A stretch of DNA of 64,000 bases from the NCBI GenBank assembly GCA_002441305.1, contig DJVT01000003.1:39226-103225 (forward strand), given 5' to 3'. Positions 8,948 through 60,159 of this stretch are shown here, piece after piece (positions within the stretch are counted from its first letter, which is position 1; each line of letters begins with the position of its first letter). The position numbers were made by a program, and so were the translations under genes. This DNA is from Candidatus Omnitrophica bacterium UBA6249. GTDB taxonomy: Bacteria; Omnitrophota; Gorgyraeia; Gygaellales; Profunditerraquicolaceae. The notes beneath the pieces are model-generated. The model ran no database searches. It was not told the DNA's origin and saw only the letters and a list, made by a program, of their open reading frames with translations.

Positions 8948-10150
8948 TTATTCTTTGTTCTTCATTCCGGGAGGGAACTTCTGCCAGGGGTATCCCCGGG
9001 CAGCCTGGTTAAAACCTAAATCAAACAACTCGCGCATTTCTTCGGGATCAAAAAGCTCTTTGGCCTTTGAAATATGGCTTGCCGGGATATAAGCAAGGTT
9101 AAAATCCCCCTTGCTCCTGTCGGTAAATACATATAACTGGTACAGGTCCCCGATGCTTTGGGCATTTGTCATGGCGTCAATCGTCCGCTCGGCGATCGCA
9201 GGGATGTTATCCGGGACTTCTTTGTAAAAAGGATCGACATACCCGTTTCTTATCACATAGATTTCATATCTAACAGCCGATGCATCGATACCTTTTTCTT
9301 TAAGCGCCTTGTCGAGGCCCTGCAGCACATCGTAAAGGAAAAACACCTGCCTGCTTATTCCTCCATCGACATGCATTTCGTCATACGACTGATTATTGGC
9401 GGTTACTTTTAAATAAACCGGCGGGAAGGCAACGGGAATCGACGCCGACGCCAATATAATCCTGCGGAATAACGTCAAGGCTTCCTCATTGCCGAAAGAA
9501 GCGATCTTGCCCATATCCCAGATCGCGAGGCGCCCCGCATCGAGATTAGTAGTGCCCACATAAAGCCTCCGCCCCTTATCATATTCTCCGGCGATATCTC
9601 TCAACAGCCTGGCGTCTATATATTTTTCGATGAGCCGCTGCAGCGGTACGGTACTGGCGACGGAATTGCTGAACGGGATCCTTATGCGGGGCGAACGCAT
9701 GCGCACTATATCCTTGGTGGAATAACTCGTATAAAATTCCTTCAGCTTGAAGTCGTAATCGCTCCCCAGGAAAGCAAAAGGAGCGATTATCGCCCCCGTG
9801 CTTATCCCCGTGACCGCCTTAAATAACGGGCGCTTGCCTGAATACGACCAGCCGTTCAACAATCCCGCTCCGTAGGCGCCATTGGCGGCGCCTCCGGAAA
9901 TAGCAAGAGCGTAATAAGTCTGGTCGGTTCCAAAATTAAAAAAGTGCGGGCCCTTTTTACCGTTTTCTTCCAGCAGCTTTACAAAATCCCGCTTAAAAGA
10001 ATCATTGGGCAGGCCGCTAAAAGCCCGGATCTCCCGCATGCCGTTGATCCCGGCAGTCCCCAATAAATCCGGCGGCACGGCGTGCCTTATGCCCGCGCAT
10101 CCGGAAAGCATGAAAATACCCAGAATTAAATAATGAAAACCTTTCGGCAT
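8948..10150 (-). CDS. patatin-like phospholipase, probable lipoprotein
   Basis: GxSxG nucleophile GISTGA, Gly-rich oxyanion region GGAANGAYGAG, and a DGG Asp motif (HVDGGIS). Start trimmed to MPKGFHYLILGIFMLSGCAG, which carries the lipobox LSGC. Confidence 0.85.
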   Translation of the reverse strand: MPKGFHYLILGIFMLSGCAGIRHAVPPDLLGTAGINGMREIRAFSGLPNDSFKRDFVKLLEENGKKGPHFFNFGTDQTYYALAISGGAANGAYGAGLLNGWSYSGKRPLFKAVTGISTGAIIAPFAFLGSDYDFKLKEFYTSYSTKDIVRMRSPRIRIPFSNSVASTVPLQRLIEKYIDARLLRDIAGEYDKGRRLYVGTTNLDAGRLAIWDMGKIASFGNEEALTLFRRIILASASIPVAFPPVYLKVTANNQSYDEMHVDGGISRQVFFLYDVLQGLDKALKEKGIDASAVRYEIYVIRNGYVDPFYKEVPDNIPAIAERTIDAMTNAQSIGDLYQLYVFTDRSKGDFNLAYIPASHISKAKELFDPEEMRELFDLGFNQAARGYPWQKFPPGMKNKE

Positions 10151-10154
10151 AATG

Positions 10155-10730
10155 TCACGAATTCTGCGGGCGGGAACCATTTTTCTTAATCACCGTCAAG
10201 ACAGCTGCCACGACTTCCGGGTCATACAATACTCCGCCGTTCTCCTTTATTTCCCGTATGGCTTTCTCAACGCTCAAGGCGGGCTTGTACACCTGGGGGG
10301 AAATAATCGTATCTACCACATCGGCGACCGCGATTATCCTTGCCAGGGGGCTTATATCTCCCCCCTTCTTCCCAAAAGGATAGCCCGAGCCATCCAATCT
10401 TTCGTGGTGCTGGAGAGCGATCTCCGAGGCAACAGGGTCAACTCTCAAAATACGCAAAAGACGGTAACCCATTTCCGGATGCTGTTTAACCAATGCCATT
10501 TCTTCTTCGTTCAGGGCGCCCGGCTTATTAATGACCTCCTCCGGCAGCCTGATCTTTCCGATATCATGGGAGATCGCCGAAATCCTGACAAGGCTGATCT
10601 TATTGTCGCCATACTTCATTTCTTTCGCGATAGCGCAGGAGATGCGGGCAACGCGCCTGCCGTGCGCAAGTACGGGTTTATTCCGGCCCAAAAGCCTTAT
10701 TATCGCCAACAGCGGGTTTGGTTTATCCAT
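10155..10730 (-). CDS. stand-alone HD-GYP domain phosphodiesterase
   Basis: HD motif (SHDIGK) and HHERLDGSGYP. Confidence 0.85.
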   Translation of the reverse strand: MDKPNPLLAIIRLLGRNKPVLAHGRRVARISCAIAKEMKYGDNKISLVRISAISHDIGKIRLPEEVINKPGALNEEEMALVKQHPEMGYRLLRILRVDPVASEIALQHHERLDGSGYPFGKKGGDISPLARIIAVADVVDTIISPQVYKPALSVEKAIREIKENGGVLYDPEVVAAVLTVIKKNGSRPQNS

Positions 10731-23758: not shown

Positions 23759-24544
23759 TTATATATCTTCCTCGTAAGAGCTGAAAGGAATCCACATGCT
23801 CTTTTCCGTGCTGATAGAAGTGCTGTAGGAATGCAGCATGCCGAAGTTGAAACAATCCACCTTGTAAGAATCGATGCTGCGCATATGCGCCAGCTCATCC
23901 TTTATCTCGTCCACCATCACCACGCTGCTTTTTTTCTGGGAATGCACCTTCTTTATGACGTATGCCTGGTCATCTTCGGTAAGAAAGGAATATATCGGCA
24001 TAAGGGCGTGCCTGTCCACCAGGGAAACCAGGTCTTCGGGAAATATATCGTTCTTGGACTCGGTCTCTATGGCCACCGTGCTTAACTGTCCGAACAATCC
24101 TTCGGGCTTGTCGAAAGAAACCGGATAGGTGGTTACGCAGGGAACATGGATTTTGAATATGACCCTTGCCTTGCCTCCCTCATCCGTATTTACGGAATAA
24201 CTGCATAAATAGCGGGTCAGGCATTTCTCTTTGGAAAAAGGAGTGCGTTTCTCGATGAAAAAAGGGTATTGGAATTCGATTCTCACCGTAGAGGCCTTGA
24301 GCTGCCTTACGTAATCCTTTATATTTGCCTTCAGGGTCTTTGTCCCTATGCGCTCCCGGTGGAGATGCAGCACCTGGATGAATTTATCTATCCACCCTGC
24401 TTCGAATTCGTGCATAATACGGGCGGAAATGGAAATATCGGCTACGGTAAACTGTCCGTTCTTATGCACTTTTGATACGACCTTCATGGGAAAAGGCATA
24501 TTCCTCATCCCCACATCTTCCAAATAACGCTTCTCCTGTTTCAT
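23759..24544 (-). CDS. FolE2/MptA-like (GTP cyclohydrolase I type 2 family) protein, catalytic motifs not evident
   Basis: The size and several blocks resemble FolE2 (RIEFQYPFFIEKRTPFS versus the FolE2 FPFF..K..P.S block; C-terminal FNFGMLHSYS versus ENFESIHNHS). I do not see the Cys/His metal-ligand motifs I remember for FolE2 (KGTHMSRF, CPCS, HNQRS). Confidence 0.45.
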   Translation of the reverse strand: MKQEKRYLEDVGMRNMPFPMKVVSKVHKNGQFTVADISISARIMHEFEAGWIDKFIQVLHLHRERIGTKTLKANIKDYVRQLKASTVRIEFQYPFFIEKRTPFSKEKCLTRYLCSYSVNTDEGGKARVIFKIHVPCVTTYPVSFDKPEGLFGQLSTVAIETESKNDIFPEDLVSLVDRHALMPIYSFLTEDDQAYVIKKVHSQKKSSVVMVDEIKDELAHMRSIDSYKVDCFNFGMLHSYSTSISTEKSMWIPFSSYEEDI

Positions 24545-25602
24545 TTCGACACCTCCTTACACCAATCTGACAAGACTCTCCATTTATTATACTTCAAATA
24601 AAATACATTCACCCGGGAGGCGCTGTGCGTCAGGTCAGCGATCTCCCCTGAACCGGAAGTAACGCTCCCGGCCTTTAAACCCAGAAAATCAAGACTCCGG
24701 CAGAACAGGCGGATAAAAGGCGAAATGCCTCTAATATCCTCTCCGATAAACATGATCGTATCGACAGACCCGAGGGCGGCGACAAAAGCGCCTACGTATT
24801 TAAGGATATTATAACAATAAATCCTGCGCAAGGCAACCGCTTTGCCCTTATTCCCTCCGCAGAGGACACAGGAAAGCTCGGTTTTCTTCCCCGCCAAAGC
24901 GGCAAACCCGCTCTCCTTTGACAGCAGCCTGTTTATCGCCTCAAAAGACATCCCCGTGGAATGCAGTTGAAAAATCACAGTCGGGTCGATATCCCCGCAG
25001 CTTGATGCGGATATTATCCCTTCCACCTGGGTGAATCCCGTGCTGGTTTCCCGGGCCTTTCCTCCGCAGATAGCGACGACATTGGTATAATTCCCCAAAT
25101 ATATGCTTATTGCCCTGGCGGGCTTTTTCTTCGTCCTGGCGCATATTTTCTTCCACGCCCACTGATGAACCAGCCCCTGGCTCCCGTATCTCCTTATGCC
25201 CCTCCTGCGCAGCTCGTAAGGCACCGCGTAAGTGCTTACCTCCTCGGGCAAATCTACGAAAAAAGCCGTATCGCACAACAAAAGATGCCTGGCACGCGGC
25301 AAGGCCCGCCTGCATTGCCGGACAGCCTTCAGGGTAAGATCGTTATATTCCGGCAGCAGCTTCACGCACCTCTCCAGCCTGCCGATAGATTCCAAAGAGG
25401 CCTCCTCCACGCTGCCCTTAATCATCTCTCCGCCGTGGTAAAGGACATACCCCACGCTGCGCACGCGTTCCAGGCCTCCTATATCGCGCCCCAGCCTGTC
25501 AAGCCAGCCGGCATCAAACAGGCACTTGCCTTCCGAAACCTTTCCATTTTCCATTGCCGCCCAGCGCAGATAAGGAAAAAACGGGTCGAGTATCAACAGC
25601 AT
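24541..25602 (-). CDS. acetate-kinase-family protein, degenerate paralogue
   Basis: It aligns by eye to the upstream acetate kinase (RRYGSQGLVHQW versus RKYGFHGLSYSY; SSCGDIDPTVIF versus STRCGDIDPMLM). It lacks the N-terminal NCGSSS loop, has Q for the catalytic His and S for the Arg, and lacks the C-terminal TEEE. Confidence 0.6.
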   Translation of the reverse strand: MLLILDPFFPYLRWAAMENGKVSEGKCLFDAGWLDRLGRDIGGLERVRSVGYVLYHGGEMIKGSVEEASLESIGRLERCVKLLPEYNDLTLKAVRQCRRALPRARHLLLCDTAFFVDLPEEVSTYAVPYELRRRGIRRYGSQGLVHQWAWKKICARTKKKPARAISIYLGNYTNVVAICGGKARETSTGFTQVEGIISASSCGDIDPTVIFQLHSTGMSFEAINRLLSKESGFAALAGKKTELSCVLCGGNKGKAVALRRIYCYNILKYVGAFVAALGSVDTIMFIGEDIRGISPFIRLFCRSLDFLGLKAGSVTSGSGEIADLTHSASRVNVFYLKYNKWRVLSDWCKEVSK

Positions 25603-25604
25603 CG

Positions 25605-26828
25605 TTACCTCAATAATAATTTAGCCCCCTCGAGGCAGATGATGAACTCCTCTTCGGTAGGCAAAAGCACTATTTTTACTTTGGAATCCTTCTTGTTCAC
25701 CGAGACGATTTCGTCACCGCTCGAAGCGCTGTTCAAATCCGTATCCAGGCGCAGGCCGGCCCATTCCATCCCGCCGCAGACCCTTTCCCTCAGGCGCCAA
25801 TTATGCACGCCTATATCATCCGTAAAAACCAGGGCATCCACGCCTCCGAGAGCGGCGACGTAACTGCCGATATATTTACGCAAGCGGTGTATATACATAT
25901 TAAAAGCCAGGCTCACCCTCCCGATATCTTTTTTCTCGTATACCTTATGGATTATATCGGTGATGTCGCTCGAGAACCCCGAAATCCCCAGAAGCCCGCT
26001 CTTTTTATTGAGTAAATCCATCAGCTCGTCCGGACGGTATCCGTAAGCGGTCATCAGGTAGAGCATCAGCATGGGATCAATATCCCCGCAGCGGGTGCTC
26101 ATCACCAGCCCGGTAAGCGGGGAATAACCCATGGAACAATCTATGGAATGCCCGTATTTTATTGCGCATACGCTCGAGCCTCCGGTCCCCAGGTGGCAGG
26201 CGACGATCTTTGTATCCCCGGTCCTGCGTTTCAGGAAAACCGGTACCTCCCTGGCGACATAAGAATAAGAAAGCCCGTGAAAGCCGTATTTCCTGAACCC
26301 GAATTTCCTGGTTATCCTTTCCGGCAAGGCATAAGTATAAGCATAATCCGGTATAGTGGAATGGAATGCTGAATCAAAGGTAGCGTACTGAACCAAGCCG
26401 GGAAAGAACTTCCTCGATTCGCGTATCACCCCCATGGATATCGGATTATGGATCGGGGCAAGCGGCAGGCACAACAAAAGCTTTTTCAAATTAGGCGTAT
26501 CCAGCAAAACTGATCCCTTGAAATGGTTCCCCCCGTGCACGAAACGGTGCCCCACGCAATCTACCTTGATACGCTCTTTTTCTATGTATTTAAGGATCAG
26601 CCTGGCGGCTGCCTGGTGGCTGGCTATGGGGACAACGACCTTCTCGGACTTGCCGTCAAAACGGTGCTCCACGAAGGAGGAAACGGCACCTTTAACCCCT
26701 ACCCTATGCGCCTTACCGTGGGCAACTACAGCAATATCCGATAAACTTTTTACCCGGAATATCTTATATGTCAGCGAAGAGCTGCCGCAGTTAAAAACCA
26801 GGATATTAAGAGGCTCCTTATGCGCCAT
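25605..26828 (-). CDS. ackA: acetate (propionate) kinase
   Basis: ILVFNCGSSSLTYKIF, GHRFVHGG, RKYGFHGLSY, STRCGDIDP and a C-terminal PTEEEF. Confidence 0.9.
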   Translation of the reverse strand: MAHKEPLNILVFNCGSSSLTYKIFRVKSLSDIAVVAHGKAHRVGVKGAVSSFVEHRFDGKSEKVVVPIASHQAAARLILKYIEKERIKVDCVGHRFVHGGNHFKGSVLLDTPNLKKLLLCLPLAPIHNPISMGVIRESRKFFPGLVQYATFDSAFHSTIPDYAYTYALPERITRKFGFRKYGFHGLSYSYVAREVPVFLKRRTGDTKIVACHLGTGGSSVCAIKYGHSIDCSMGYSPLTGLVMSTRCGDIDPMLMLYLMTAYGYRPDELMDLLNKKSGLLGISGFSSDITDIIHKVYEKKDIGRVSLAFNMYIHRLRKYIGSYVAALGGVDALVFTDDIGVHNWRLRERVCGGMEWAGLRLDTDLNSASSGDEIVSVNKKDSKVKIVLLPTEEEFIICLEGAKLLLR

Positions 26829-28224
26829 GGTGCATCCCCTGCCGCCCTGACCGCCTGTTTTTTCTGAAAGAAATATATTTTTTCAACTTATTATCGACCC
26901 TGTCGATAAAGACAAACAGCCAGCCGAGAGGGCCTTTATCAAGAGAATGGAAACGCGTCTTCACATTCTCTATCTCCTCCCCCGTCTCCACGACCAAAAG
27001 AGGCGACTTCTTTACCGAAAGCACCTGGGACGGATAAACACTGCGGTGCCCCGTCATCAGATAGCTTATTACGCATGCTATAGTCGCGTAAGAAGCCACT
27101 TTGGGCCCGAACAATTCTACGGCCATAATACTTGCGGCTATCGGGGTATTTGCCGTGCCTGCCAGGACCGCCACCAGGCCTATGGCCGCGAAAGTAGCCG
27201 GGTCAAGGCCCAGCAATACGGCAAACAGGCTTCCCGCCGTGGCGCCGATGAAGAAGATCGGGGTGACAATCCCGCCGCTCCCCCCGAAATTCAAAGTAAT
27301 GCTTGTAAATACCATCTTCAGTATAAAAGCATACCAGACTATCTTTGCCCCTTGCAGCGAGGCCTGTATCGTATCCAGGCCAAGCCCCAAATACTGCTGC
27401 GAGAAAATGAATACCAATACGATAAGCGCAAGGCCGCCTACCGCGCCCTTCAAAGGCTTGGATATCTTTAAGCGCAAGGCCGCCTTCTCGCCGAGCTTGA
27501 GCATCTCTATTACCATCGCCGAACAGAGCCCGAAAAATATCCCGGCGAGGGTGACTTTTATGAAGAACGTGCCGCTGAAAACGGGTATGAAATTCAAATG
27601 ATGGTGAAAATAAGTGATCCCGAAAGAAGATGATATATGATAGCTGATGATGCCGGCGATAAAAGAAGGAAGCAGGACGTCATAAAGTATGCTCCCGATA
27701 AAAAGCACCTCCACCCCGAAGACGGCTCCCGCGATAGGGGTGCCGAAGACGGAAGCAAAACCCGCGCTTATGCCGCAGATTACCAGTTTCTTGCGGTCCC
27801 TGTTGCCGAATTTGAACAAGTCAGCGAAAATGGAAGACAGGCCGCCGCCTATCTGCGCGCACGGCCCTTCCTTGCCCACCGAGCCTCCTGCGGCGAGGGT
27901 AATAAGGGTAGCGACAAGCTTTACCGGGACCACCGCCGGCTTGATCTTGCCGAAATGCTTATGGATAGCCTCGATGACCTTCTCGGTACCATGCCCCTCC
28001 GCGTCGGGGGCCAGGTATTTCACCGCCGCAGCGCTCAGGAAGAGGGCTGGCGGCAGCAGGAGAAAATAGTAAATATGATTCTTCCCGAACAGGCTGCTCC
28101 AATCCAGGAGTTTCAGGAAAAAAGTGGTGGCAAGCCCGACGATTATCCCGACTATCGTGGCCAGGAAAACCCATTTGACCACGCTAATAAGCAAAATTGT
28201 CTCTTCGGTAAGGCCTCTCTTCAT
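26818..28224 (-). CDS. ClC-family chloride channel / H+-Cl- antiporter
   Basis: Selectivity-filter motifs GSVGKEGP and GFASVFGTPIAG in a multi-TM protein. Confidence 0.9.
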   Translation of the reverse strand: MKRGLTEETILLISVVKWVFLATIVGIIVGLATTFFLKLLDWSSLFGKNHIYYFLLLPPALFLSAAAVKYLAPDAEGHGTEKVIEAIHKHFGKIKPAVVPVKLVATLITLAAGGSVGKEGPCAQIGGGLSSIFADLFKFGNRDRKKLVICGISAGFASVFGTPIAGAVFGVEVLFIGSILYDVLLPSFIAGIISYHISSSFGITYFHHHLNFIPVFSGTFFIKVTLAGIFFGLCSAMVIEMLKLGEKAALRLKISKPLKGAVGGLALIVLVFIFSQQYLGLGLDTIQASLQGAKIVWYAFILKMVFTSITLNFGGSGGIVTPIFFIGATAGSLFAVLLGLDPATFAAIGLVAVLAGTANTPIAASIMAVELFGPKVASYATIACVISYLMTGHRSVYPSQVLSVKKSPLLVVETGEEIENVKTRFHSLDKGPLGWLFVFIDRVDNKLKKYISFRKNRRSGRQGMHHGA

Positions 28225-28296: not shown

Positions 28297-29508
28297 TTAC
28301 AGGTTGACGACATCTTCAGGATGGTACAAGGAAAGGAACAACAGCATATAATCCCTTAAATGACGCGTAATCAAAAAGTTGTTCTTTACATGCTCCCGTC
28401 CGTTTTCGCCCAGTTTCCTGGCGTACTCCGGGCTGCTCAAAAGCTGTTTTACGGCGAAACTCGCCCCTTCCACCGAGTGGCAAAGCAATCCGGAATATTT
28501 ATGCTTTATCTGCAGCGGGATGCCTCCCACATTGGAAGCGACCACCGGCTTTGCTTTCCATAGCGCTTCGGAAACGGTTAAACCAAACCCCTCCTTTATC
28601 GATTTCTGCAGGATCACGTCCGAAGCCCTCTGCAGGGCGTTTACTTCTATATCATTCTGGGGAAGCAGCAAGATATGTATATCCGGGTCATTCTTTGCCT
28701 TTTCCCTCACCTCGCTCAAGACCTGGAAACCCTCCGGGTCGTCATTAGCCGCCCCTCCGGCAAGTATCAACTGGCAGTCTATATATTTTTTTACCTGCAG
28801 GTATGAGTCGATCACCCCCACGGGGTCCTTCAGGCGGTCGAAACGCGATATCTGGGTGATGATCGGCTTATTCTTTTCTATCCCGTATTTCCTTAACACA
28901 AAATCTATCTTCTCCTGCGGCAGCTCCTTGTTCTTATCGCTCAACGGGTCTATGGAGGGGGATATGAGAAACTGCCTGATGGGAATCTTGCGGGAAAAAG
29001 AAGGGGCGGAAAATACCGCCGAATCGTACTGCACGATAAAATTCATGAGAAAATTCCATACCTTTTCGTTGGGATTGGATACATCCACGTGACAGCGCCA
29101 AAGCCATTTGTTGGAGTCCTTCTTCTGAACCAGGGCTATCGGCTGGGGGTCGTGGACAAAGACTATATCTCCGTAAGTATTCACATCCTTTATGTTCTCA
29201 CGGCTGGTATCCATGAATATATCGAAATCCCTCTGGCTGACCTCGCCGGGCCTGCCGTGGAGGGAATTATGGAACTTTTTGGTCACTTCAAAAAACTGCT
29301 CTCCCCCCTTTATCACGTCCCACTTGGTATCCACCTGGAGCTCCCTTAAAAGAGGAACCATGCGGTTGAGTATCTCCGCCACGCCTCCCCCCACGGGCGT
29401 GGAATTTATATGCTGGATAACCTTGCCTTTGAGGCGTTCTCCCAAAAGCCTCAAATCATCCATTACCGCCTGCCCCACTAAAGGTGTATATTCTTCTATC
29501 TTCGCCAT
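28297..29508 (-). CDS. treT: trehalose glycosyltransferring synthase (TreT-like GT4)
   Basis: Blocks recalled from archaeal TreT: NSTPVGGGVAEIL, WLWRCHVD, SPSIDPLSDKN, KPIITQISRFD, DDPEG, NALQRASDVILQKSIKEGFGLTVSEALWKAKPV. Confidence 0.8.
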   Translation of the reverse strand: MAKIEEYTPLVGQAVMDDLRLLGERLKGKVIQHINSTPVGGGVAEILNRMVPLLRELQVDTKWDVIKGGEQFFEVTKKFHNSLHGRPGEVSQRDFDIFMDTSRENIKDVNTYGDIVFVHDPQPIALVQKKDSNKWLWRCHVDVSNPNEKVWNFLMNFIVQYDSAVFSAPSFSRKIPIRQFLISPSIDPLSDKNKELPQEKIDFVLRKYGIEKNKPIITQISRFDRLKDPVGVIDSYLQVKKYIDCQLILAGGAANDDPEGFQVLSEVREKAKNDPDIHILLLPQNDIEVNALQRASDVILQKSIKEGFGLTVSEALWKAKPVVASNVGGIPLQIKHKYSGLLCHSVEGASFAVKQLLSSPEYARKLGENGREHVKNNFLITRHLRDYMLLFLSLYHPEDVVNL

Positions 29509-30180
29509 TTAAACCGAGATCCTCTTTTCCACTATCCTTATAATCATATTCCTTAGGTCCTCAAGAGTCCGGGTATAAGGGTCAAAACCTGAAATCCTGT
29601 CCGCCAGCTCTTTATCCCCCAGGGAATTCTCTATCCAATAGGAGAAATCGTTGGTCGGTTTTTCAAGGCGCAGGCGCGCCTCGAAGATATGAAAATATAT
29701 GGACTCGATAGTGATTTTTTTCAATACCTGCGAGAATTCCTTAAGGTCGTAAACCACGTAGCTGGTGGGAATTATGAAACTCACCGATTTTATGAAATGG
29801 AACTCTTCGCCCGTCCCCGCGAACCTCATCTTGGCCAAAGGGTTATCCTTCAGGTAATTCTCTATAGTCGAGGCGATCTTATCGCGCAGCTGGCGTATAG
29901 TCGAATACTGCATGATATCTATGCTTACCAGCCTTTCCCCAAGCTCATCCTCCCCGAGGACCCCGGTTATCCAATAGGCAAAATCATTTGGGGGCTCGGG
30001 AGAGAGGAACTGGTGCTGCTGAAGGAACCTGTGCGTATGGTGATAGATACATGCCCCCGGGACCTCCTTGATAAGGTCAAGCAGCTGCCCCAGGGTAGTG
30101 GCGCGCAATCCGGTAAGCTCGGAAAGATGAAGCCTGGTGGAAAACCTGAAAGGCTGGCTGGCTTTTGTCAATTCACTCAT
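29509..30180 (-). CDS. hypothetical protein made of two homologous ~110-aa repeats
   Basis: Internal duplication seen by eye: CIYHHTHRFL...PNDFAYWITGVLGEDELGERL...IRQLRDKIASTIENYL versus SIYFHIFEARL...PTNDFSYWIENSLGDKELADRI...LEDLRNMIIRIVEKRI. Confidence 0.5.
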   Translation of the reverse strand: MSELTKASQPFRFSTRLHLSELTGLRATTLGQLLDLIKEVPGACIYHHTHRFLQQHQFLSPEPPNDFAYWITGVLGEDELGERLVSIDIMQYSTIRQLRDKIASTIENYLKDNPLAKMRFAGTGEEFHFIKSVSFIIPTSYVVYDLKEFSQVLKKITIESIYFHIFEARLRLEKPTNDFSYWIENSLGDKELADRISGFDPYTRTLEDLRNMIIRIVEKRISV

Positions 30181-30986
30181 CGCAACTCCCCGTAAATCCT
30201 CCTTAAGAATTCAACAACCTCGCTCTGGTTCTTCAGGTAATAATCGGCGCAGAGCCTCTTATTCCTTCCCACGGAAACAGTGATCCCCTTTCCTTTCAAC
30301 GCCCTGAAAGCGTCCCTGTCGGTCACATCATCCCCCAGGTAAAAAGGAAAGATATTCCTGCCTCCCGGCAGGCGCGTCTGCCTGCGCAGGATCCAGGATA
30401 CCGCGCTGCCCTTATCCCAATCAACCGCCGGCCTTAACTCCAGGACCATCTTCCCCGGCCTGACCCTGACCTTTCTGCAGGACAAAAAAGAAGCCACCGC
30501 GGCGTAAAAAGCGGACCTCAGGCCCGGCACGCTTTTCTTATCCGCCAGGCGGTAATGCAGGCTGAGAGAAAGCCCCTTGTCCTCGACAAATGCCCCCGGG
30601 ACGGAAGAAGCCTTCCTTTTCAGGATATTGCTTATCTTCTTTACCGCCTCATGATACCCCAACGGCAGGGAAACGGTAAAATTTATCCTCTTGCCGCGTA
30701 TCTCCAGGCCATGGTTACCGGAATAAACCACGCCTCTTAGCCCCACCCTCCTGCGCACGTCCTTCAACGATCTGCCGCTGATAAAAGCCACATCCGCCTG
30801 CGGGCTGCGCGCCAGCTTGCTTAACAAGGCCGCGCTTTCATCCGGCAAGACGACCTTATCCGGGGTCCTGGCGATAGGCACGACCGTGCCGTCAAAATCC
30901 AAGAACAGCAGCAGGCGCCTGCCCTTAAACTTTTTCCTAACGGTCTCCCACTCTTTAAAAAGATATTTCATGCGCGAACCGCTCAA
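30177..30986 (-). CDS. otsB: trehalose-6-phosphate phosphatase
   Basis: HAD motif I FLDFDGTVVPI and motif IV YLGDDVTDRDAF. Its stop and start overlap the neighbouring genes. Confidence 0.85.
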   Translation of the reverse strand: MSGSRMKYLFKEWETVRKKFKGRRLLLFLDFDGTVVPIARTPDKVVLPDESAALLSKLARSPQADVAFISGRSLKDVRRRVGLRGVVYSGNHGLEIRGKRINFTVSLPLGYHEAVKKISNILKRKASSVPGAFVEDKGLSLSLHYRLADKKSVPGLRSAFYAAVASFLSCRKVRVRPGKMVLELRPAVDWDKGSAVSWILRRQTRLPGGRNIFPFYLGDDVTDRDAFRALKGKGITVSVGRNKRLCADYYLKNQSEVVEFLRRIYGELR

Positions 30987-33223
30987 GTCTTTTTCAAGGC
31001 GGTCAGCTCCGTAATGATATTCCCCGCCCAGCGGTAAACGTTGTTTTCCGCGATAATCCTGCGCATATTCTCCATCCGCTTCTTTTTCTCCTCGATAGGC
31101 ATCTCTATGGCCATCTTGATTGCGTCGGAGAACTCCTCGATGGAATAAGGATTGACCAGTACGGCATCCTCGGAGAACTCGCGTGAGGCCCCGGTAAACT
31201 GGCTGAGCACAAGGCTGCCGGACAAATTGCTCTTTTCCACCACATATTCCTTGGCTACAAGGTTCATGCCGTCATGCAGAGAACTGACGATGCAGATGTC
31301 GGCCAGCCTGTAATACGGGTATATATCATTCTGCGAGAAGTGTTTTCTGAGGTAAACCACCGGTTTCCAGTTCCCGTCCACGTGCTTCCAGTTTATCTTC
31401 TCGACCAATTCATCTATCTCTCCGATCAGGTCATGGTAACGCTTGATATGCGTGCGGCTCGGCGCGGCAAGCTGGATAAAAACGAATTTTTTCTTGTACT
31501 CCGGGTATTTCTCCAGGAACCTGTCTATGGCCAGCAACCTTTCGGCTATCCCCTTGGTATAATCTATCCTGTCCACCCCCACGCCGACTATCTTGCCTTC
31601 CAGGCTGAACTCTTTCTTGAGTTTTTCCATCCTGCCCGGCAGGTCCTCCTTCGCAGGGTTATCCTTCCTATGCGCGTCTATACTTATAGGAAAAGACCGG
31701 ACAAAGGTCTCTTTGCCCGAACGCACCACGCTGAATTTCTCCGTATCCACGCGCGACTCAAGCAGCCTGTTTGCGGTATCCAGGAAATTATTGCAGTGGT
31801 TCTGCACATGAAAACCGATCAAATCGCACCCCAGCATGCCCTCGAGTATTTCGTTCTGGTAAGGGCAGATCATGAAAGCCTCGGGGGTCGGCCAGGGAAT
31901 ATGCCAAAACAAGGCTATTTTCGCGTCGGGGCGTTTATCCTTGATCATCTTGGGGAGGAGGGTAAAATGATAATCCTGCACGAATATGAACGGGCTGCTC
32001 GCCGGGAGCTCTTCCAGCACGCTGTCGGCGAACTTCTGGTTTACCTCCTTATACATAAGCCAATCCGATTCTTTAAATACCGGACGGGTGTGCGTATTAT
32101 GGCATAACGCCCACAGGCCTTCATTCGAAAATCCGTAATAATACCCCTCCTGCTCATCCTTGTTCAACCATACCCTTTTAAGTATATAACGGTTGTCTTC
32201 CGGGGGGACGCCGAGTTTGTCCTTGGAATTGACGAATTGCCTGTCCAGGTCGCCGCTGCCATTGGCAATCCAGGTCCCTCCGCAGGCCGCCAGGATCGGA
32301 TGTATCGCGGTAACCACCCCGCTGGCCGGCCTTATGCATACCGCGTTCCCGGAATCTTCATCGAGGACATGCATATACGGCTCCCTGTTGGAAACCACGA
32401 ACAGCGAATTATCCCCCAGCTTGGCATGGATAAGATCTTTTAATTTCGCCTCAGTCCATATCTCGGCTTTTTGCATCCGCGCATGCGCCTCGTCAGATAT
32501 GGTACGGCGGGCAACCCTGATACTCAAAGCAACCTGCTCCACTTCGCTGATCAGCTTTCCGAATTCCCCTTTTTCCACGAACGGCCGCAGCTTGTCTATC
32601 TCCCCTCTCTGGAAATGTTTGAACCACTGGGTCAGCCTGCGCACAGGCATAACGAATATCTGCCTTTGAATAAGCAGCGCGACCATCAGTATGAGGAGAA
32701 TAAGGCTTACCGAGATAACGCTTATCCTTTTCCAAAGCTCCGCCAGGGTGGTAAACATATACGAAGTATCATAAGCAACCTCCACCATGCCCAAGATTTC
32801 TCCGTTATCGTCCAAAACAGGAAGTATATAACTGTAAACGGAGTATTCATTGAGCTTCTCCAATACGCCCAGCGGCTGTTTTGACTTCAGGATATCATTG
32901 AGGTAAGGCCTGCTCCTGTCTTTTAAATCGGAAAGTCTCTCGGTAATAGCCAGGATTTTGCCGTCCTTGTCGTAAATAACGCATCCCTGCAGCCTCTCTC
33001 TTTTTTGGAAACTGTCCACAAGGCGGTTGGCCTGTTTCAGGTCCCCGTTTACAAGGATATATTTGGCAGACAGCTCCATGCTTTCGTCCACCGCCCTGGC
33101 CTTCCTTTTCAGGTCATCCATGAGCTTGTCTTCCGTAAAACGGGCCTGCATAATGCCGAAAAAGGCAAGGCCTAAGGTGACTATAATCAAGATAGGCAGA
33201 ATAAATAACAGGACCCTCTTCAT
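30983..33223 (-). CDS. otsA: trehalose-6-phosphate synthase (GT20) fused to an N-terminal TM-periplasmic-TM-HAMP-like sensor module
   Basis: The C-terminal ~480 aa are GT20 (FVVSNREPY, VQDYHFTLLP, LSQFTGASREF). The N-terminus has TM1 (LLFILPILIIVTLGLAFFGI), a ~140-aa extracytoplasmic segment, TM2 (VISVSLILLILMVALLI) and a HAMP-like linker. Confidence 0.85.
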   Translation of the reverse strand: MKRVLLFILPILIIVTLGLAFFGIMQARFTEDKLMDDLKRKARAVDESMELSAKYILVNGDLKQANRLVDSFQKRERLQGCVIYDKDGKILAITERLSDLKDRSRPYLNDILKSKQPLGVLEKLNEYSVYSYILPVLDDNGEILGMVEVAYDTSYMFTTLAELWKRISVISVSLILLILMVALLIQRQIFVMPVRRLTQWFKHFQRGEIDKLRPFVEKGEFGKLISEVEQVALSIRVARRTISDEAHARMQKAEIWTEAKLKDLIHAKLGDNSLFVVSNREPYMHVLDEDSGNAVCIRPASGVVTAIHPILAACGGTWIANGSGDLDRQFVNSKDKLGVPPEDNRYILKRVWLNKDEQEGYYYGFSNEGLWALCHNTHTRPVFKESDWLMYKEVNQKFADSVLEELPASSPFIFVQDYHFTLLPKMIKDKRPDAKIALFWHIPWPTPEAFMICPYQNEILEGMLGCDLIGFHVQNHCNNFLDTANRLLESRVDTEKFSVVRSGKETFVRSFPISIDAHRKDNPAKEDLPGRMEKLKKEFSLEGKIVGVGVDRIDYTKGIAERLLAIDRFLEKYPEYKKKFVFIQLAAPSRTHIKRYHDLIGEIDELVEKINWKHVDGNWKPVVYLRKHFSQNDIYPYYRLADICIVSSLHDGMNLVAKEYVVEKSNLSGSLVLSQFTGASREFSEDAVLVNPYSIEEFSDAIKMAIEMPIEEKKKRMENMRRIIAENNVYRWAGNIITELTALKKT

Positions 33224-34260
33224 CCCTGTTTCTCCTGTTCGTAATTTATCGCCCGGATTGGATAGGGAATAACGATACCTTCGCGGGCGTAACGTTTGTG
33301 CAGCCTTTTAATGAATTCGTGTTTTATCAAATACTGGTCTACGAACTCTTTGACTCTGAGAATAACCGAAAAGTTTATACTGGAGTCGCTGAAAGAACCG
33401 TAGCGGATAAAAGGTTCGAATTCCGCCACTCCCCCGGGCACCTGGCTCAGGGTCTCCTTGGCCGTCTCGCAAGTCACTTTCTCCACCTTCTCCAGGTCGC
33501 TGCCGTAGTGCACCCCGAGATCGACTAAAACCGACATCTCCTTCTCCGGAAGATGATAATTAGTCACTATCGCCTTGGTCAATTTCTCGTTGGGGACCAG
33601 GATGATATTATTCGACAGCATCCTTATCTTGGTGGTGCGCCAAGTAATATCCCTGACATACCCCTCTTCCCCGCTGTCCAGCCTCACGTACTCCCCTACC
33701 TTAATCTGCTTTGTGGCGATAATGTAGAACCCGGAGAAGATATTGGATAGGGTATCCTGCAAGGCCAGGGCCACGGCAATGCCGCCGATGCCCAGGGTAG
33801 CCATAACCGGGGCTATGGAAATACCCAGGCTGTTAAAGATCACCAGGATACCGATTGTGAATATGATTATCTTGCTGATATTCTGGGTAAGCGACGTTAC
33901 CGGAAGGGCGGTCTCTACCTTGCTGGAATATACCTTGATCAGTTTAACCGATATGTTAGCCAATGCCACAGTAACGGAAAATATGCCCAGGACAAGGAGC
34001 AGCTTCCCGGTTATGCGCGAAACATCGTCCGGTACCCTCAAATACCGGAGCACCAGATAAATACCCAGCATCAAAGACCAGATTATGAACGGCCCGCCTA
34101 AGGATTCGGCAATTACATCGTCAATATGCGTCTTTGTGTTCTTTGACCAGCGGGCGGCCCCGGCAAAGATGATTTTCCGTATCAACAGGCCGCACAACAG
34201 GCTCAAAAGGAGTATCCCTGCGGGTATTACAAAAACACCTAAGTTGTTGATATTCAACAT
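33220..34260 (-). CDS. MscS-family mechanosensitive channel
   Basis: TM helices followed by the MscS beta domain (VGEYVRLDSGEEGYVRDITWRTTKIRMLSNNIILVPN). Start set at the ATG with AGGTGG upstream; the track ORF begins at a TTG at 34293. Confidence 0.85.
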   Translation of the reverse strand: MLNINNLGVFVIPAGILLLSLLCGLLIRKIIFAGAARWSKNTKTHIDDVIAESLGGPFIIWSLMLGIYLVLRYLRVPDDVSRITGKLLLVLGIFSVTVALANISVKLIKVYSSKVETALPVTSLTQNISKIIIFTIGILVIFNSLGISIAPVMATLGIGGIAVALALQDTLSNIFSGFYIIATKQIKVGEYVRLDSGEEGYVRDITWRTTKIRMLSNNIILVPNEKLTKAIVTNYHLPEKEMSVLVDLGVHYGSDLEKVEKVTCETAKETLSQVPGGVAEFEPFIRYGSFSDSSINFSVILRVKEFVDQYLIKHEFIKRLHKRYAREGIVIPYPIRAINYEQEKQG

Positions 34261-34307
34261 GGAATAGCCGTCCACCTTGCCCCCTTTTCTCAAACCACTG
34301 ACTTTTT

Positions 34308-34335
34308 ATTATACTACTTTCGGCTGATTGCTCAA
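34308..34335 (-). promoter_or_regulatory. candidate promoter of the MscS-trehalose operon
   Basis: On the minus strand, TTGAGC (34330-34335) is separated by 16 nt from TATAAT (34308-34313). Confidence 0.4.
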
Positions 34336-34346: not shown

Positions 34347-35579
34347 TCAGCGGGAGAAGAATCTGAAATTAGTCCAATACTCCACCCCGGGTTTGAATCT
34401 GGAAAGACCGGCTTCCTGGCGGACTTTGAAGAATAATATGGCAAGAAATAAAACAAGCACCGGGATAATCAGGAAGAATTTCTTAAACAAAGGGCCTCTT
34501 TTTTTCAGGCCGATCACGCACGGGAAAACCCCAAACAGGATCACCACCCCCACCCCTCCCACGAAATCAAGCGCGTTCAGGAATATATTCGGATAAACCA
34601 GGGCGATAACAAGCGGGGGGAGGAAAGAAAGAGCAATAACCATCCATCTGTTCTTTACCTTAAAATGATTGGTCATTATATCGTTTACAAAGTCTATAGT
34701 AGTGTTCCCGAAGGAAATGTACGAAGTGACAATCGCCACGAGCGCGAAGACGATCGAGACCGGGGTAAACAAATGGATATTTATCGCCTTGGCAAGCGGG
34801 ACGGTAGCCGGGAGGTTGTTATCCAGCGCATAGGTTATACTGCCCTCCCCCGACAGGGGAAGGACGCCGATGCCCGTCTGGATCCATATCGAATTCATGA
34901 TAAGACCCACGACCGTACCGGCAAGGATGGATACGGTTATCTCCCTGAAATTCCAGTTCAACTGCTTGCATACCGTGGGTATAATGCTGTGGAAATTGGC
35001 TGCCATCACGATTATCGGCAGGGCAGCCGGCAGCATGGGCCAATCTGCCCGCACGAGCCTCTGCGGAAGCACGCACCTCTCCCCCATGGCCACCAGCCCG
35101 ACGAAAGCAACCAGCAGCAAAAGCACAAAGAAAGTATTGAACTTAAGAAGCGACCTGGGGTTGATTATGGTCAGCGCGGTAACCGGGATAAAAAACAACA
35201 ATATCACTATCTCCCTCGAAAGGGGAATGCGGGAGAAATCCAGGATGATCGCGGTAGCCCCGGTAACATAAACCAGCAGGGAGCCGTAAAGTATAACCAG
35301 GTTGGCCACGGTCGCCGCCCATTTTCCGAAAGGTCCGAAATACTGCCGGTACATGCTCGGATAATGGAATACCTCCTGGTGCGTGGAGACCGATTCCCCG
35401 GCAAGCACCATCGCAGTAAAGAACATGGCGCAGCCCACCAAAACTATTCCCGTGACCGAGGGGATAAAACCCGCCAAACCCGTCTTTATGGGAAGGCCGA
35501 GTATGCCGGCCCCGATGAGGTTGCCGGTGATAAAACAGGTCACCATAAGAATAAGCGAAAAAGGCGATTTCTTATTCAT
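34347..35579 (-). CDS. aromatic amino-acid (Trp/Tyr) permease family transporter
   Basis: The N-terminus FITGNLIGAGILGLPIKTGLAGF is typical of the Trp/Tyr permease (HAAAP) family, with ~11 TM. Confidence 0.75.
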   Translation of the reverse strand: MNKKSPFSLILMVTCFITGNLIGAGILGLPIKTGLAGFIPSVTGIVLVGCAMFFTAMVLAGESVSTHQEVFHYPSMYRQYFGPFGKWAATVANLVILYGSLLVYVTGATAIILDFSRIPLSREIVILLFFIPVTALTIINPRSLLKFNTFFVLLLLVAFVGLVAMGERCVLPQRLVRADWPMLPAALPIIVMAANFHSIIPTVCKQLNWNFREITVSILAGTVVGLIMNSIWIQTGIGVLPLSGEGSITYALDNNLPATVPLAKAINIHLFTPVSIVFALVAIVTSYISFGNTTIDFVNDIMTNHFKVKNRWMVIALSFLPPLVIALVYPNIFLNALDFVGGVGVVILFGVFPCVIGLKKRGPLFKKFFLIIPVLVLFLAILFFKVRQEAGLSRFKPGVEYWTNFRFFSR

Positions 35580-57988: not shown

Positions 57989-58012
57989 GTTTGTAACCTT
58001 TCATAGAATAGA

Positions 58013-58050
58013 TGTATACAAACTATACCACTTTGTATACATTATGTCAA
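58013..58050 (-). promoter_or_regulatory. near-consensus promoter of fic with a 10-bp inverted repeat bracketing the -10
   Basis: On the minus strand, TTGACA (58045-58050) is separated by 17 nt from TATAGT (58022-58027). The inverted repeat TGTATACAAA (58013-58022) / TTTGTATACA (58032-58041) brackets the -10. Confidence 0.55.
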
Positions 58051-58094
58051 GGATTAGATACAAGATACCTATTATACCTAAGGGGCATTTCTAT

Positions 58095-58124
58095 GGTAGA
58101 TGCCGGTCGCGACCGGCATCTACC
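58095..58124. repeat. 30-nt perfect palindrome
   Basis: GGTAGATGCCGGTCGCGACCGGCATCTACC is its own reverse complement. Confidence 0.95.
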
Positions 58125-58153
58125 AGGTTTTCTCAACCATCCCCTTTATTTCA

Positions 58154-58899
58154 TCACCGCGCCATCAACGCAAACACACCCCAACCCAGGTACTCACGCG
58201 TGTAAGTAGCGTAGCGCTCGGGTCCCGAGGTAAGTTCGGCTCGAACCTCTTTTGCCAGCTCATCGCCTGGATTGGCTTCAAGCCAGCGGCGCATGGTGAG
58301 CCATTTGGCCGCCTCGTATCTATCCCAACCGTCTTGGTTGGCCAAAACCATTTCCACGACATCGTAACCAAGTCGGCCAAAAGACGCCAGAAGTTCCGGA
58401 AGCATAAGGAAGTCAGAGATTGAGGTGGCAAGACACCCCTTGGCAACATCTTCTGTCGGCGGTAACTGCCGCCAGTAGGGCTCGCCGATGAGGATAATCC
58501 CTCCTTTACGCAGGCTCCGCGCCAGAAGCTCGATCGTGCCGGCAACTCCCCCGCCAATCCAGGCGGCGCCGACACAGGCTGCACATCGACCTTCTCGTCA
58601 GAGACATACCCGGCAGCATCGCCATGAATAAACTTTACTTTATCTGCAACGCCGAGTTCTACAGCGCGGAGTTTCGCTTGCTCGCTGAACAACTCACTCA
58701 TATCAACGCCGGTGCCGATGATTCCGTAATCACGTGCCCAAGTGCACAACATCTCCCCCGAGCCGCTGCCAAGGTCAAGCACTCTATCTCCTTTTTTCAG
58801 ACGCAGCGCCGCGCCCAGAGTAGCGAACTTTTCCGGCGTAAACGGATTGTGAATGCGATGAGCGCTTTCAGTAATATTAAATATACGTGGAATGTCCAT
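58154..58899 (-). pseudogene. class I SAM-dependent methyltransferase interrupted by a single frameshift
   Basis: The N-terminal frame carries VLDLGSGSGEM up to ...DEKVDV. The sensible continuation AACVGAAWIGGGVAGTIELLARSLRKGGIILIGEPYWRQLPP...MLPELLASFGRLGYDVVEM... is in another frame. The switch lies near 58575-58590. Confidence 0.75.
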
Positions 58900-59049
58900 T
58901 GCAAAAATCTCCTTTTCTTAAAACTAATGGGTCTCTACTTAATCGTATTTACGCGCATAGTTCTCAAATAATGACTCATACCATTGCCTCATATTTATTC
59001 TTTTGTCCGTACTGACTAACCCCAGCAAACTACCCATATCTTATTAAAT

Positions 59050-59307
59050 CTATAAAAAAGTCTTAACTAAAAGTACAACTGTTAAGATTAACATTACCCA
59101 AGTCAATCCTTTGATCGTTTTTGTTAATTTTATCATCGCTTCATTTTGTTGCTGAGTTATTTTAGCAGATCTACAATTTAAAATAGCTTTTGCCACTTCT
59201 CTATTTCTTTCAGCTAGAGGTTCTCCAGACCCCATAAAACACTGCTTCAGAATATATTCTATTAACTCTTCATCAGTTTTTTTGTTTAATTCATCTAGAT
59301 ACGACAT
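59050..59307 (-). CDS. small tail-anchored membrane protein, unknown function
   Basis: Start chosen at the ATG preceded by GAAGGAGAGAA. The 85-aa product is MSYLDELNKK...KGLTWVMLILTVVLLVKTFL with a single C-terminal TM. The gene is AT-rich. Confidence 0.5.
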   Translation of the reverse strand: MSYLDELNKKTDEELIEYILKQCFMGSGEPLAERNREVAKAILNCRSAKITQQQNEAMIKLTKTIKGLTWVMLILTVVLLVKTFL

Positions 59308-59388
59308 TTCTCTCCTTCTCATGCAGCAATCACAAATTAGCAACAATAATCTTATAGGCGCTTCTTGGGTTTTGTTTCCTCGGAGTAA

Positions 59389-59502
59389 CATGGTAGGTGC
59401 AGATCGTAACCCGATATTTCATTGTAATCTGGTAGGTGTCGGTCGCGACCGACACCTACCAGGTGATGATTAGATCGTGAATTGCGACCTGCACCTACCA
59501 TG
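59389..59502. repeat. nested palindromes: a 30-nt perfect palindrome inside a split copy of the same family
   Basis: The inner unit is GGTAGGTGTCGGTCGCGACCGACACCTACC (59431-59460). The outer arms CATGGTAGGTGCAG (59389-59402) and CTGCACCTACCATG (59489-59502) are perfectly complementary. AGATCGT(A/G)A is repeated at 59401-59409 and 59472-59480. Confidence 0.9.
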
Positions 59503-59525
59503 GTTTTTTCTTTCCAATCGCCCCC

Positions 59526-60023
59526 TTAAAATAAATTCTCTACTACCCAACCACAATTCAAACATTCTCTATAGTCTTCTTTTTGAATAGTTTTGCAAAA
59601 CGGACAGACCCATTCTCCATTTCTAATTTCAAGCAAATCTCTTTTTTTAAATTCAAATAATGCTTTTGCAAAAACACTCTTTACAGAAAACCCCTCCTTA
59701 GACCAATGATTAACAAAATCCTTAACTTTCCTATTGTTAAAGAAAACCGACCAATAAAATTCTTCTTTTTTACTTATTCCCTTTATATATATGAAAACGA
59801 AACTCCACACAAAAATAAGGAATAATATACAAAGCAAAATATTAAAATGGCTAACGAACACTAGTATTAAAAAACTAACAATGATTGATCTGAAATAGCA
59901 CGTCATCTTTTTATCTAAGAAATTAGAAAGATCATAAAGTACACTATCCTTATAGAAAATACCAAGAGATTTTAAACTTATAATTTTGATATTTATATCC
60001 CCTTGCCAAATATCGCTTGCCAT
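59526..60023 (-). CDS. two-TM membrane protein with C-terminal zinc-ribbon, unknown function
   Basis: GGAG RBS. The hydrophobic stretch FRSIIVSFLILVFVSHFNILLCILFLIFVWSFVFIYI is followed by the C-terminal CPFC...CLNC. The gene is AT-rich. Confidence 0.55.
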   Translation of the reverse strand: MASDIWQGDINIKIISLKSLGIFYKDSVLYDLSNFLDKKMTCYFRSIIVSFLILVFVSHFNILLCILFLIFVWSFVFIYIKGISKKEEFYWSVFFNNRKVKDFVNHWSKEGFSVKSVFAKALFEFKKRDLLEIRNGEWVCPFCKTIQKEDYRECLNCGWVVENLF

Positions 60024-60076
60024 TTTCCATCTCCGAACTCACTGGTGTCCTAAATCGAATAATCTAAAAACATATA

Positions 60077-60120
60077 TATACTTTCTTCTTCCTCGACCGC
60101 ATTTACTTAAACCCCAGAGA
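60077..60120. repeat. intergenic ~44-nt direct repeat, copy A
   Basis: TATACTTTCTTCTTCCTCGACCGCATTTACTTAAACCCCAGAGA matches copy B at 32 of the first 39 positions (ungapped, counted by hand). Confidence 0.8.
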
Positions 60121-60124
60121 ACAT

Positions 60125-60159
60125 CACTTATTTTAAAAAATAGAACCGTCCCCTTTATT
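60125..60159. repeat. 35-nt direct repeat shared with 56795-56829
   Basis: CACTTATTTTAAAAAATAGAACCGTCCCCTTTATT versus TACTTAGTTTAAGAAAATAGAGCCGTCCCTTTATT. Both abut or overlap a gene stop codon. Confidence 0.75.

Follow-up and report, generated by a model that had tools for sequence, protein, structure and literature searches.

A receptor-type trehalose-6-phosphate synthase with a predicted sensor and HAMP input module in a conserved trehalose gene cluster of Omnitrophota

The DNA analysed here, called the window, is a stretch of 64,000 nucleotides from contig DJVT01000003.1 of Candidatus Omnitrophica bacterium UBA6249. Between positions 28297 and 34335, on the minus strand, it contains a promoter-like site and five closely packed open reading frames (ORFs). 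Pfam and NCBIfam assign these to an MscS-family mechanosensitive channel, a trehalose-6-phosphate synthase (OtsA), a trehalose-6-phosphate phosphatase (OtsB), a DUF5752 protein and a TreT-type trehalose synthase (Table 1). Residues 1-272 of the OtsA protein form a first transmembrane helix (TM1), a periplasmic PDC/single-Cache (sCache) domain, a second transmembrane helix (TM2), a HAMP domain and a helical linker, and are followed by an intact glycosyltransferase family 20 (GT20) domain. From the sequences and structure models, the chance appears even that a signal from outside the cytoplasm or from the membrane controls trehalose-6-phosphate synthesis post-translationally through the PDC/sCache domain, TM2, HAMP and linker. 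Such a protein would be a receptor whose output belongs to a new class; put the other way round, it would be an OtsA that is controlled in a new way.

The membrane topology of the OtsA protein is supported by positive-inside charges, with MKR ahead of TM1 (N-terminus inside) and RQ...RR following TM2. With basic residues flanking both helices on the cytoplasmic side, residues 26-165 come to lie outside the cytoplasm. A cleavable signal peptide instead of TM1 was considered and is unlikely, given a continuous model helix of residues 2-59 and the homology to kinases described below. For the approximately 140 residues between the transmembrane helices, the sCache_3_2 profile gives 28.1 bits against a cut-off of 28.4 and dCache_1 gives 32.7 bits (E 7e-8) against a cut-off of 45. 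The direct Pfam HAMP score (PF00672) is 13.8-15.7 bits against a cut-off of 25. Because these direct scores are sub-threshold, the HAMP and Cache assignments rest on transitive homology and on the predicted model.

An exhaustive search with a profile of the OtsA N-terminus gave 2084 cluster representatives at an E-value of at most 1e-3, and the full-length ones mostly combine this N-terminus with GT20. Three of the matched proteins, P0434, P0436 and P0455, were found at E about 1e-21. They are classic histidine kinases in which this sensor is combined with HisKA and HATPase_c, and their HAMP domains are Pfam-significant (E 1e-13 to 1e-15). The profile also matches a HAMP-PAS-GAF kinase (P0475) and two GGDEF proteins. 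In a BLASTP comparison the OtsA N-terminus aligns end to end with kinase P0436 (residues 3-251, E 3e-16), and the alignment of residues 188-236 in both proteins is free of gaps over the region where the HAMP domain of P0436 scores E 1e-15. One fused relative (P0393) exceeds the Pfam HAMP cut-off by itself with 26.5 bits, and several homologues of the fusion have precomputed matches to PF02743, PF17203 or PF14827. Weak NCBIfam matches of OtsA were found to HK_WalK, over residues 2-245, and to the HAMP region of SiaA. Judged from these alignments, OtsA shares a homologous input module with genuine histidine kinases and diguanylate cyclases.

The AlphaFold model of OtsA residues 1-273 (monomer, 37-sequence alignment, predicted local distance difference test score (pLDDT) 83) has a long helix of residues 2-59, an alpha/beta PAS-like core with five strands and a helix of residues 154-205 that comprises TM2 and the first HAMP helix (AS1). 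These are followed by a loop, a helix of residues 220-254 (AS2) and a helix of residues 258-271. The top Foldseek match of the model is the WalK TM-sensor-TM-HAMP model 9a5d, over 261 columns, followed by WalK extracellular domains (4ywz, TM-score 0.75, root mean square deviation 2.8) and then by DcuS, CitA and KinD. WalK (YycG), CitA and DcuS-type kinases thus share TM1, an extracytoplasmic PDC/sCache domain, TM2 and HAMP with OtsA, but OtsA has neither DHp/HisKA nor HATPase_c and has GT20 as its output. The kinase core of a WalK/CitA-like receptor is in effect swapped for a glycosyltransferase, so that a phosphorelay and a response regulator are not needed. The original prediction of a transmembrane helix, an extracytoplasmic domain of about 140 residues, a second transmembrane helix and a HAMP-like segment in front of GT20 agrees with the hydrophobic helices, the PDC/sCache fold of the model and the homology to kinase HAMP domains. 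When the domain searches it had called for are taken separately, the transmembrane helices are clear and the HAMP domain is recognised by way of P0436 and P0393, whereas the direct HAMP score falls short.

The fusion is not confined to the window. A 99% identical protein of 746 amino acids is present in a separate NCBI Omnitrophica metagenome-assembled genome (MAG), and at least 120 protein clusters of about 745 amino acids (743-757) in NCBI, JGI, ENA and Logan have the fusion architecture. The N-terminal module is encoded by 239 species-representative genomes. Among 80 loci listed from these genomes the great majority are titled Omnitrophota; the other listed loci belong to MAGs labelled Planctomycetales/Planctomycetia, Elusimicrobia, Nitrospirae, Spirochaetes and Actinomycetota, and two are titled only 'bacterium'. 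The original prediction had conceded that the N-terminal region might be a gene of its own, brought next to OtsA through a mis-assembled junction. Such an artefact, whether from misassembly or a frameshift, is practically out of the question and was rejected: the protein is read from one open frame, the length of the junction is conserved, and the fusion recurs in the independent MAG, the clusters and the genomes just mentioned.

Among 111 full-length homologues the mean identity is 82% in HAMP, 80% in GT20, 77% in the linker, 72% in the periplasmic domain and 57% in TM2. Seventeen of the 51 HAMP columns are invariant, including the landmarks P193 in AS1, G207 in the connector and G222, and AS2 has the form G222-x-L...EVEQ. 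About 20 residues of the sensor domain are also invariant and cluster on beta strands, among them Q79, G80, C81, Y84, T94, Y130, S131, Y132, P135, G145, E148, D152 and T153. C81 (32981-32983, minus strand) is the sole cysteine of the periplasmic domain. It belongs to an invariant motif on beta-1, Q79-G80-C81, ahead of which R75 and R77 are near-invariant. A role in redox chemistry or in contact with a metal or ligand is conceivable for it.

The connection between HAMP and GT20 varies little in length. Residues 1-273 are free of insertions and deletions in most of 144 homologues. In 52 distant relatives (25-50% identity) the spacing from P193 to R280 is 87 residues in 31 and ranges from 84 to 90 with one outlier of 68, and the tryptophan-threonine dipeptide of the linker is kept in 50 of them. 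Conservation of this kind is what marks a helical coupler that is sensitive to phase, as opposed to a passive tether. One homologue of 913 amino acids (P0349) has about 160 extra N-terminal residues, with the profile match starting at residue 180 and GT20 at residue 433.

The catalytic part of the protein appears to be complete. Glyco_transf_20 matches OtsA residues 274-741 over profile positions 3-472 of 473 with 419 bits against a cut-off of 32.5, and the domain aligns over its full length with the soluble OtsA of M. thermoresistibile (5jij, E 9e-85). The motifs VVSNR, DYH, GVDRxDYTKG and DGMNLVAKEY are retained, and S278, N279 and R280 are invariant in the 111 homologues. R280, in beta-1 of GT20, corresponds to the OtsA residue that binds the phosphate of glucose-6-phosphate. 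The protein scores below the NCBIfam equivalog TIGR02400 (415 bits against 564.85), and the glucosylglycerol-phosphate synthase model scores lower still (311). As the TIGR02400 cut-off is missed, the sequence does not settle the donor nucleotide or whether the acceptor is glucose-6-phosphate or another sugar phosphate. OtsB reaches 178.6 bits with TIGR00685, where the equivalog cut-off is 68; its TTG start overlaps the OtsA stop, and an alternative ATG start lies at 30971. By their motifs and profile matches, GT20, OtsB and the TreT enzyme all seem to be intact enzyme parts.

Compared with soluble OtsA from E. coli (1gz5) and M. thermoresistibile (5jij), the GT20 domain of the window matches over its full length with substrate-binding motifs retained, and OtsB lies 3' of OtsA as in otsBA-type operons. 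The difference lies in the 272 extra residues, which make the protein a predicted integral-membrane receptor. To our knowledge, the known OtsA enzymes are cytosolic and controlled transcriptionally or by cytosolic effectors. For mycobacterial OtsA these effectors are 2-oxoglutarate and 2-phosphoglycerate (PMC6879718).

The five genes are joined by 4-nt overlaps at MscS/OtsA, OtsA/OtsB and OtsB/DUF5752, and DUF5752 and TreT abut. These junctions and the Pfam and NCBIfam matches agree with the earlier placement of MscS, OtsB and a TreT-type enzyme in one operon with OtsA. All features of that earlier list were found where it had put them, but it overlooked a fifth gene, DUF5752. The promoter candidate, called from its consensus match alone, sits in the 53-bp gap between MscS and an upstream permease gene and is the best promoter-like site of the region. 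No convincing intrinsic terminator was found 3' of TreT, between TreT and a downstream ClC gene, so that transcription may run on from TreT into the ClC gene. Rfam and tRNA scans of the whole window gave no match, and no riboswitch or leader RNA is evident.

Table 1. Features of the trehalose gene cluster, with positions numbered in the window and residues in the OtsA protein
Feature	Position	Strand	Basis
Sigma-70-like promoter candidate	34308..34335	-	TTGAGC-16 nt-TATAAT, 10/12 consensus matches
MscS-family mechanosensitive channel	33220..34293	-	PF21088, PF00924 and PF21082, all above Pfam cut-offs
Receptor-type trehalose-6-phosphate synthase (OtsA), 746 amino acids	30983..33223	-	Single uninterrupted ORF
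OtsA TM1, residues 4-22	33158..33214	-	Kyte-Doolittle 2.98; inside continuous model helix 2-59
OtsA predicted extracytoplasmic PDC/single-Cache sensor, residues 26-165	32729..33148	-	Profile scores, AlphaFold topology, fold matches
OtsA TM2, residues 167-185	32669..32725	-	Kyte-Doolittle 3.12; model helix 154-205 crosses the membrane into HAMP
OtsA HAMP, residues 188-238	32510..32662	-	Gap-free alignment to kinase HAMP; helix-loop-helix in the model
OtsA helical linker, residues 239-272	32408..32509	-	W256-T257 motif; ends at beta-1 of GT20 (VVSNR)
OtsA GT20 catalytic domain, residues 273-746	30986..32407	-	Glyco_transf_20 E 2e-125
OtsB trehalose-6-phosphate phosphatase (HAD-IIB, DFDGT motif)	30177..30986	-	PF02358 E 1e-46
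DUF5752/OrfY-family protein, 223 amino acids, two internal repeats	29509..30180	-	PF19027 E 8e-69
TreT-type trehalose synthase (glycosyltransferase family 4, GT4)	28297..29508	-	PF21269 E 1e-53 and PF00534

The gene order receptor-OtsA, OtsB, DUF5752, TreT is found in 52 of the 55 loci with enough downstream sequence. In 60 species-level loci the identity is 70% for the OtsA N-terminus and 44% for OtsB, and 79% and 72% for TreT and OrfY. Two loci (L027 and L043, the latter from a MAG labelled Spirochaetes) have receptor-OtsA with no OtsB, OrfY or TreT within 5.6 kb downstream. In an Acidobacteriota MAG (QHZL01000064.1, locus L092) receptor-OtsA is followed by OtsB only, and the flanks contain no OrfY, TreT or MscS. 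The receptor-synthase unit is therefore independent of the rest of the module. Between receptor-OtsA and OtsB in this locus are 1.3 kb without a called gene (9287-10607). A distant receptor-OtsA of 752 amino acids (P0376) lies in locus L094 (7001-16224) beside response regulators, HATPase fragments and poly-HAMP proteins, one of which has 636 amino acids and many HAMP/HAMP_2 repeats. This context hints that receptor-OtsA is linked to a larger signalling network.

The start of the MscS gene can be placed at a TTG (34293), giving 357 amino acids, or at an ATG at 34260, giving 346. The ATG is preceded by AAGGTGGA and is probably the true start; homologues were called at 345 amino acids. The protein has predicted transmembrane helices, and the profiles of TM2/3, the beta-domain and the C-terminal domain are all above their cut-offs. 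Because it scores below the NCBIfam equivalog cut-offs, it counts as a member of the MscS family but not, strictly speaking, as an orthologue of MscS. Among the 46 loci with both flanks, MscS lies directly upstream of OtsA or between OtsA and OtsB in 22, elsewhere in the flank in 2, and was undetected in 22. MscS is thus an accessory part of the trehalose module.

The protein overlooked earlier scores 231 bits with PF19027 (cut-off 23), and its residues 5-220 align with residues 5-213 of OrfY from Thermoproteus tenax (PDB 4cso) with 30% identity (E 1.5e-20). By sequence, DUF5752 belongs to the OrfY family. A structure model matches 4cso alone in the PDB, which makes the OrfY/DUF5752 fold an orphan; with a pLDDT of 69 and an alignment from the 120 listed of 4475 matches, all at least 78% identical, this model only confirms 4cso. 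The PDB header labels OrfY as a transcription factor. No paper on DUF5752 or OrfY together with trehalose or Thermoproteus tenax was found in the literature searched. In synteny comparisons OrfY is the invariable gene directly upstream of TreT.

The glycosyltransferase itself matches TreT of T. uzoniensis (6zj4, E 2e-123) and TreT of P. horikoshii (2x6q, E 5e-102). Its N-terminal domain scores 181 bits with PF21269 (cut-off 27) and the EX7E motif is intact, with EGFGLTVSE conserved. The NCBIfam equivalog TreT_Thcocales, a model specific to Thermococcales, gives 370 bits against a cut-off of 775. Sequence comparison points to a true TreT orthologue, and the TreT-type synthase named in the earlier gene list is upheld by PF21269, EX7E and the match to 6zj4. 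A metagenome scan with OrfY from T. tenax gave six contigs whose OrfY shares 76% identity with that query. All six have orfY ahead of treT, as in the window, with a 4-nt overlap between the two genes, and their treT is 46% identical to that of the window. No OtsA match was found within the 4-kb flanks of orfY-treT in these Thermoproteales-like contigs. OrfY-TreT is a two-gene unit common to Thermoproteales-like archaea and Omnitrophota. In T. tenax itself, treT and orfY reportedly form an operon.

Two kinds of archaeal locus can be compared with the cluster. The msc-gt-tpsp operon of T. tenax combines a mechanosensitive channel, a GT4 and a fusion of trehalose-6-phosphate synthase and phosphatase (TPS-TPP, or TPSP); the glycosyltransferase activates TPSP by complex formation, and a role in stress response has been proposed (PMC3634074). 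This is the precedent that the original prediction had pointed to, and it exists as described there. Like this operon, the Omnitrophota cluster brings together in one operon a mechanosensitive channel, a GT20 synthase, the function of a phosphatase and a GT4. There are also differences. The channel of T. tenax is a 197-aa truncated form (PMC3634074). OtsA and OtsB are separate genes in the window, in contrast to the single TPS-TPP protein of T. tenax, and the T. tenax synthase lacks the sensor domain that the Omnitrophota OtsA carries. The activator in T. tenax is a PimA-like GT4, its activation needs the TPS-TPP fusion, and TreT constitutes a separate pathway (PMC3634074). In the window the glycosyltransferase is a TreT orthologue paired with OrfY; the PimA-like enzyme was compared with it by description. 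With Thermoproteales orfY-treT (4cso; 6zj4) the cluster shares the order and the overlapping or abutting junctions, but the archaeal pair stands alone whereas in Omnitrophota it is appended to the receptor-OtsA and OtsB genes. A more fitting description of the Omnitrophota cluster is a bacterial counterpart of the two trehalose loci of T. tenax merged into one, in which the synthase has gained a receptor.

Among proteins with a HAMP domain, the HAMP-GGDEF, HAMP-adenylyl cyclase and HAMP-PP2C (SiaA) enzymes follow the same logic of transmembrane sensor, HAMP and catalytic output. Here, unlike in those signalling enzymes, the output is a metabolic GT-B glycosyltransferase that makes the precursor of a compatible solute.

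If the module works as its architecture suggests, OtsA would be a transmembrane one-component receptor, probably dimeric. A periplasmic or membrane signal would cause a conformational change in HAMP, which the linker would relay to the N-terminal Rossmann lobes of GT20. The open/closed equilibrium of the GT-B fold or the geometry of the dimer would be biased, and trehalose-6-phosphate synthesis would thereby be switched. OtsB would convert trehalose-6-phosphate to trehalose, OrfY-TreT would offer a second route from nucleoside diphosphate (NDP)-glucose and free glucose, and MscS, in the approximately half of the loci where it is present, would release solutes on down-shock. A more far-reaching combination is possible but doubtful, in which the first described HAMP-coupled glycosyltransferase, the MscS valve and an OrfY tethering TreT into a membrane complex constitute a transcription-independent turgor and stress homeostat.

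The nature of the signal is where the original prediction went furthest. The receptor architecture is in line with the post-translational control it proposed, but osmosensing goes beyond what the architecture implies, and a chemical or envelope-derived signal fits the PDC/sCache fold equally well or better. A direct osmosensor would respond to ionic strength, turgor or membrane tension and would make up, with MscS, a self-contained turgor homeostat. In favour of this, 24 of 46 loci have MscS within the cluster, where it occupies two different positions, trehalose is a compatible solute, T. tenax couples a mechanosensitive channel to trehalose synthesis (PMC3634074) and a ClC channel is directly downstream in the window and close relatives. 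However, the extracytoplasmic domain has a fold of the ligand-binding type, and its invariant strand residues look more like those of a site where a ligand or a partner binds. In 22 of the 46 loci MscS is missing, and the Acidobacteriota and L094 versions have no nearby channel. In the osmosensor EnvZ, a PDC-like periplasmic domain is dispensable for osmosensing, which also counts against this explanation. With a ligand-type fold, invariant residues and no MscS in half of the loci, this explanation needs to be treated with caution, and direct osmosensing appears rather unlikely.

The other explanations change the role of the input module or of TreT. It is improbable that the N-terminal module is a mere membrane anchor or dimerisation scaffold that carries no signal and keeps a constitutive OtsA at the membrane, for example for membrane protection or for channelling the product to an exporter or glycolipid pathway. 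A folded periplasmic domain of 140 residues with invariant positions is superfluous for a simple anchor, and in other proteins this module has kinases and GGDEF enzymes as its output. HAMP is conserved like the active-site domain and the linker is fixed in length, whereas conservation is lowest in TM2, which is the actual anchor; these points stand against the completeness of the catalytic domain by itself and the sub-threshold HAMP and Cache scores, both of which suit an anchor. A complex as in T. tenax, with the TreT-type enzyme, possibly together with OrfY, acting mainly as a non-catalytic activator of OtsA/OtsB and not as a second route, is compatible with receptor control and would be prompted by the position of TreT and OrfY, which always follow OtsA-OtsB immediately downstream, at junctions that overlap or abut, by the high conservation of both and by the activation of TPSP by a GT4 in T. 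tenax (PMC3634074). It is nevertheless very unlikely. The T. tenax activator is PimA-like and requires a TPS-TPP fusion, while the window has separate OtsA and OtsB and a close orthologue of characterised TreTs that keeps EX7E. Moreover, orfY-treT occurs by itself in the Thermoproteales-like contigs, and fused OtsA occurs in Acidobacteriota without TreT. The analogy in which TreT activates OtsA, put forward in the original prediction, is weak for the same reasons, and the identification of TreT with the T. tenax activator was rejected.

Some observations weigh against control of OtsA by the input module, or against an osmotic function of the cluster. The HAMP and Cache scores of the window's own OtsA lie below the Pfam cut-offs, and coupling of HAMP to a glycosyltransferase was not described in the literature searched, so that signal transmission of this kind has no precedent there. 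About half of the loci have no MscS, and a strictly osmotic interpretation is weaker for it. According to their record titles, moreover, low-salinity groundwater and lakes are the source of many Omnitrophota MAGs. Receptor control of trehalose-6-phosphate synthesis by an extracytoplasmic or membrane signal is the reading preferred here.

The immediate neighbours of the cluster are a ClC chloride channel gene (26818-28224, minus strand), 72 bp downstream of TreT, and a Trp/Tyr-family permease gene (34347-35579, minus strand), 53 bp upstream of MscS. Permease and ClC genes flank the module only in close relatives (L001-L003) and not in L004 or L005. Further downstream are two tandem acetate kinase paralogues (24541-26828, minus strand). 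The first is full length (407 amino acids), and the second (353 amino acids) matches profile positions 81-385 only and thus lacks the N-terminal segment; the pair is kept in L001, the relative at 86% identity. Elsewhere in the window, a low-GC island at 58000-62000 has a GC content of 0.34-0.41 compared with about 0.50 elsewhere. Its small minus-strand ORFs encode a methyltransferase (58165-58899), two proteins without a Pfam match and a DUF6998 protein (62022-62531). A sub-threshold TIR-like match (CAP12/Pycsar TIR, E 8e-4) was found at 60161-60832. The island may be horizontally acquired or a defence-type islet.

Public sequences of the OtsA fusion are named merely 'trehalose-6-phosphate synthase'. 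The Omnitrophota papers searched mention 'trehalose synthesis' only, and a 2024 review of OtsA and TreT enzymes mentions no HAMP, sensor-domain or transmembrane forms. Searches for HAMP-glycosyltransferase fusions gave nothing relevant in the literature covered.

In the current understanding, transcription and cytosolic effectors govern how bacteria make trehalose. If the proposed reading is true, a receptor-type OtsA would add direct transmembrane control of compatible-solute synthesis that bypasses gene regulation. It would also extend the outputs of HAMP and Cache modules from signalling enzymes to a metabolic GT-B glycosyltransferase, the catalysis of which depends on lobe closure. Receptor-OtsA would offer a simple in vitro read-out of HAMP signalling, namely the release of uridine diphosphate (UDP) or adenosine diphosphate (ADP). 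OrfY/DUF5752, an orphan fold with a solved structure, gains a genomic context through its association with TreT, which holds for archaea as well as bacteria. Omnitrophota is a widespread uncultured phylum; the module is among its most conserved accessory operons and may explain its stress tolerance.

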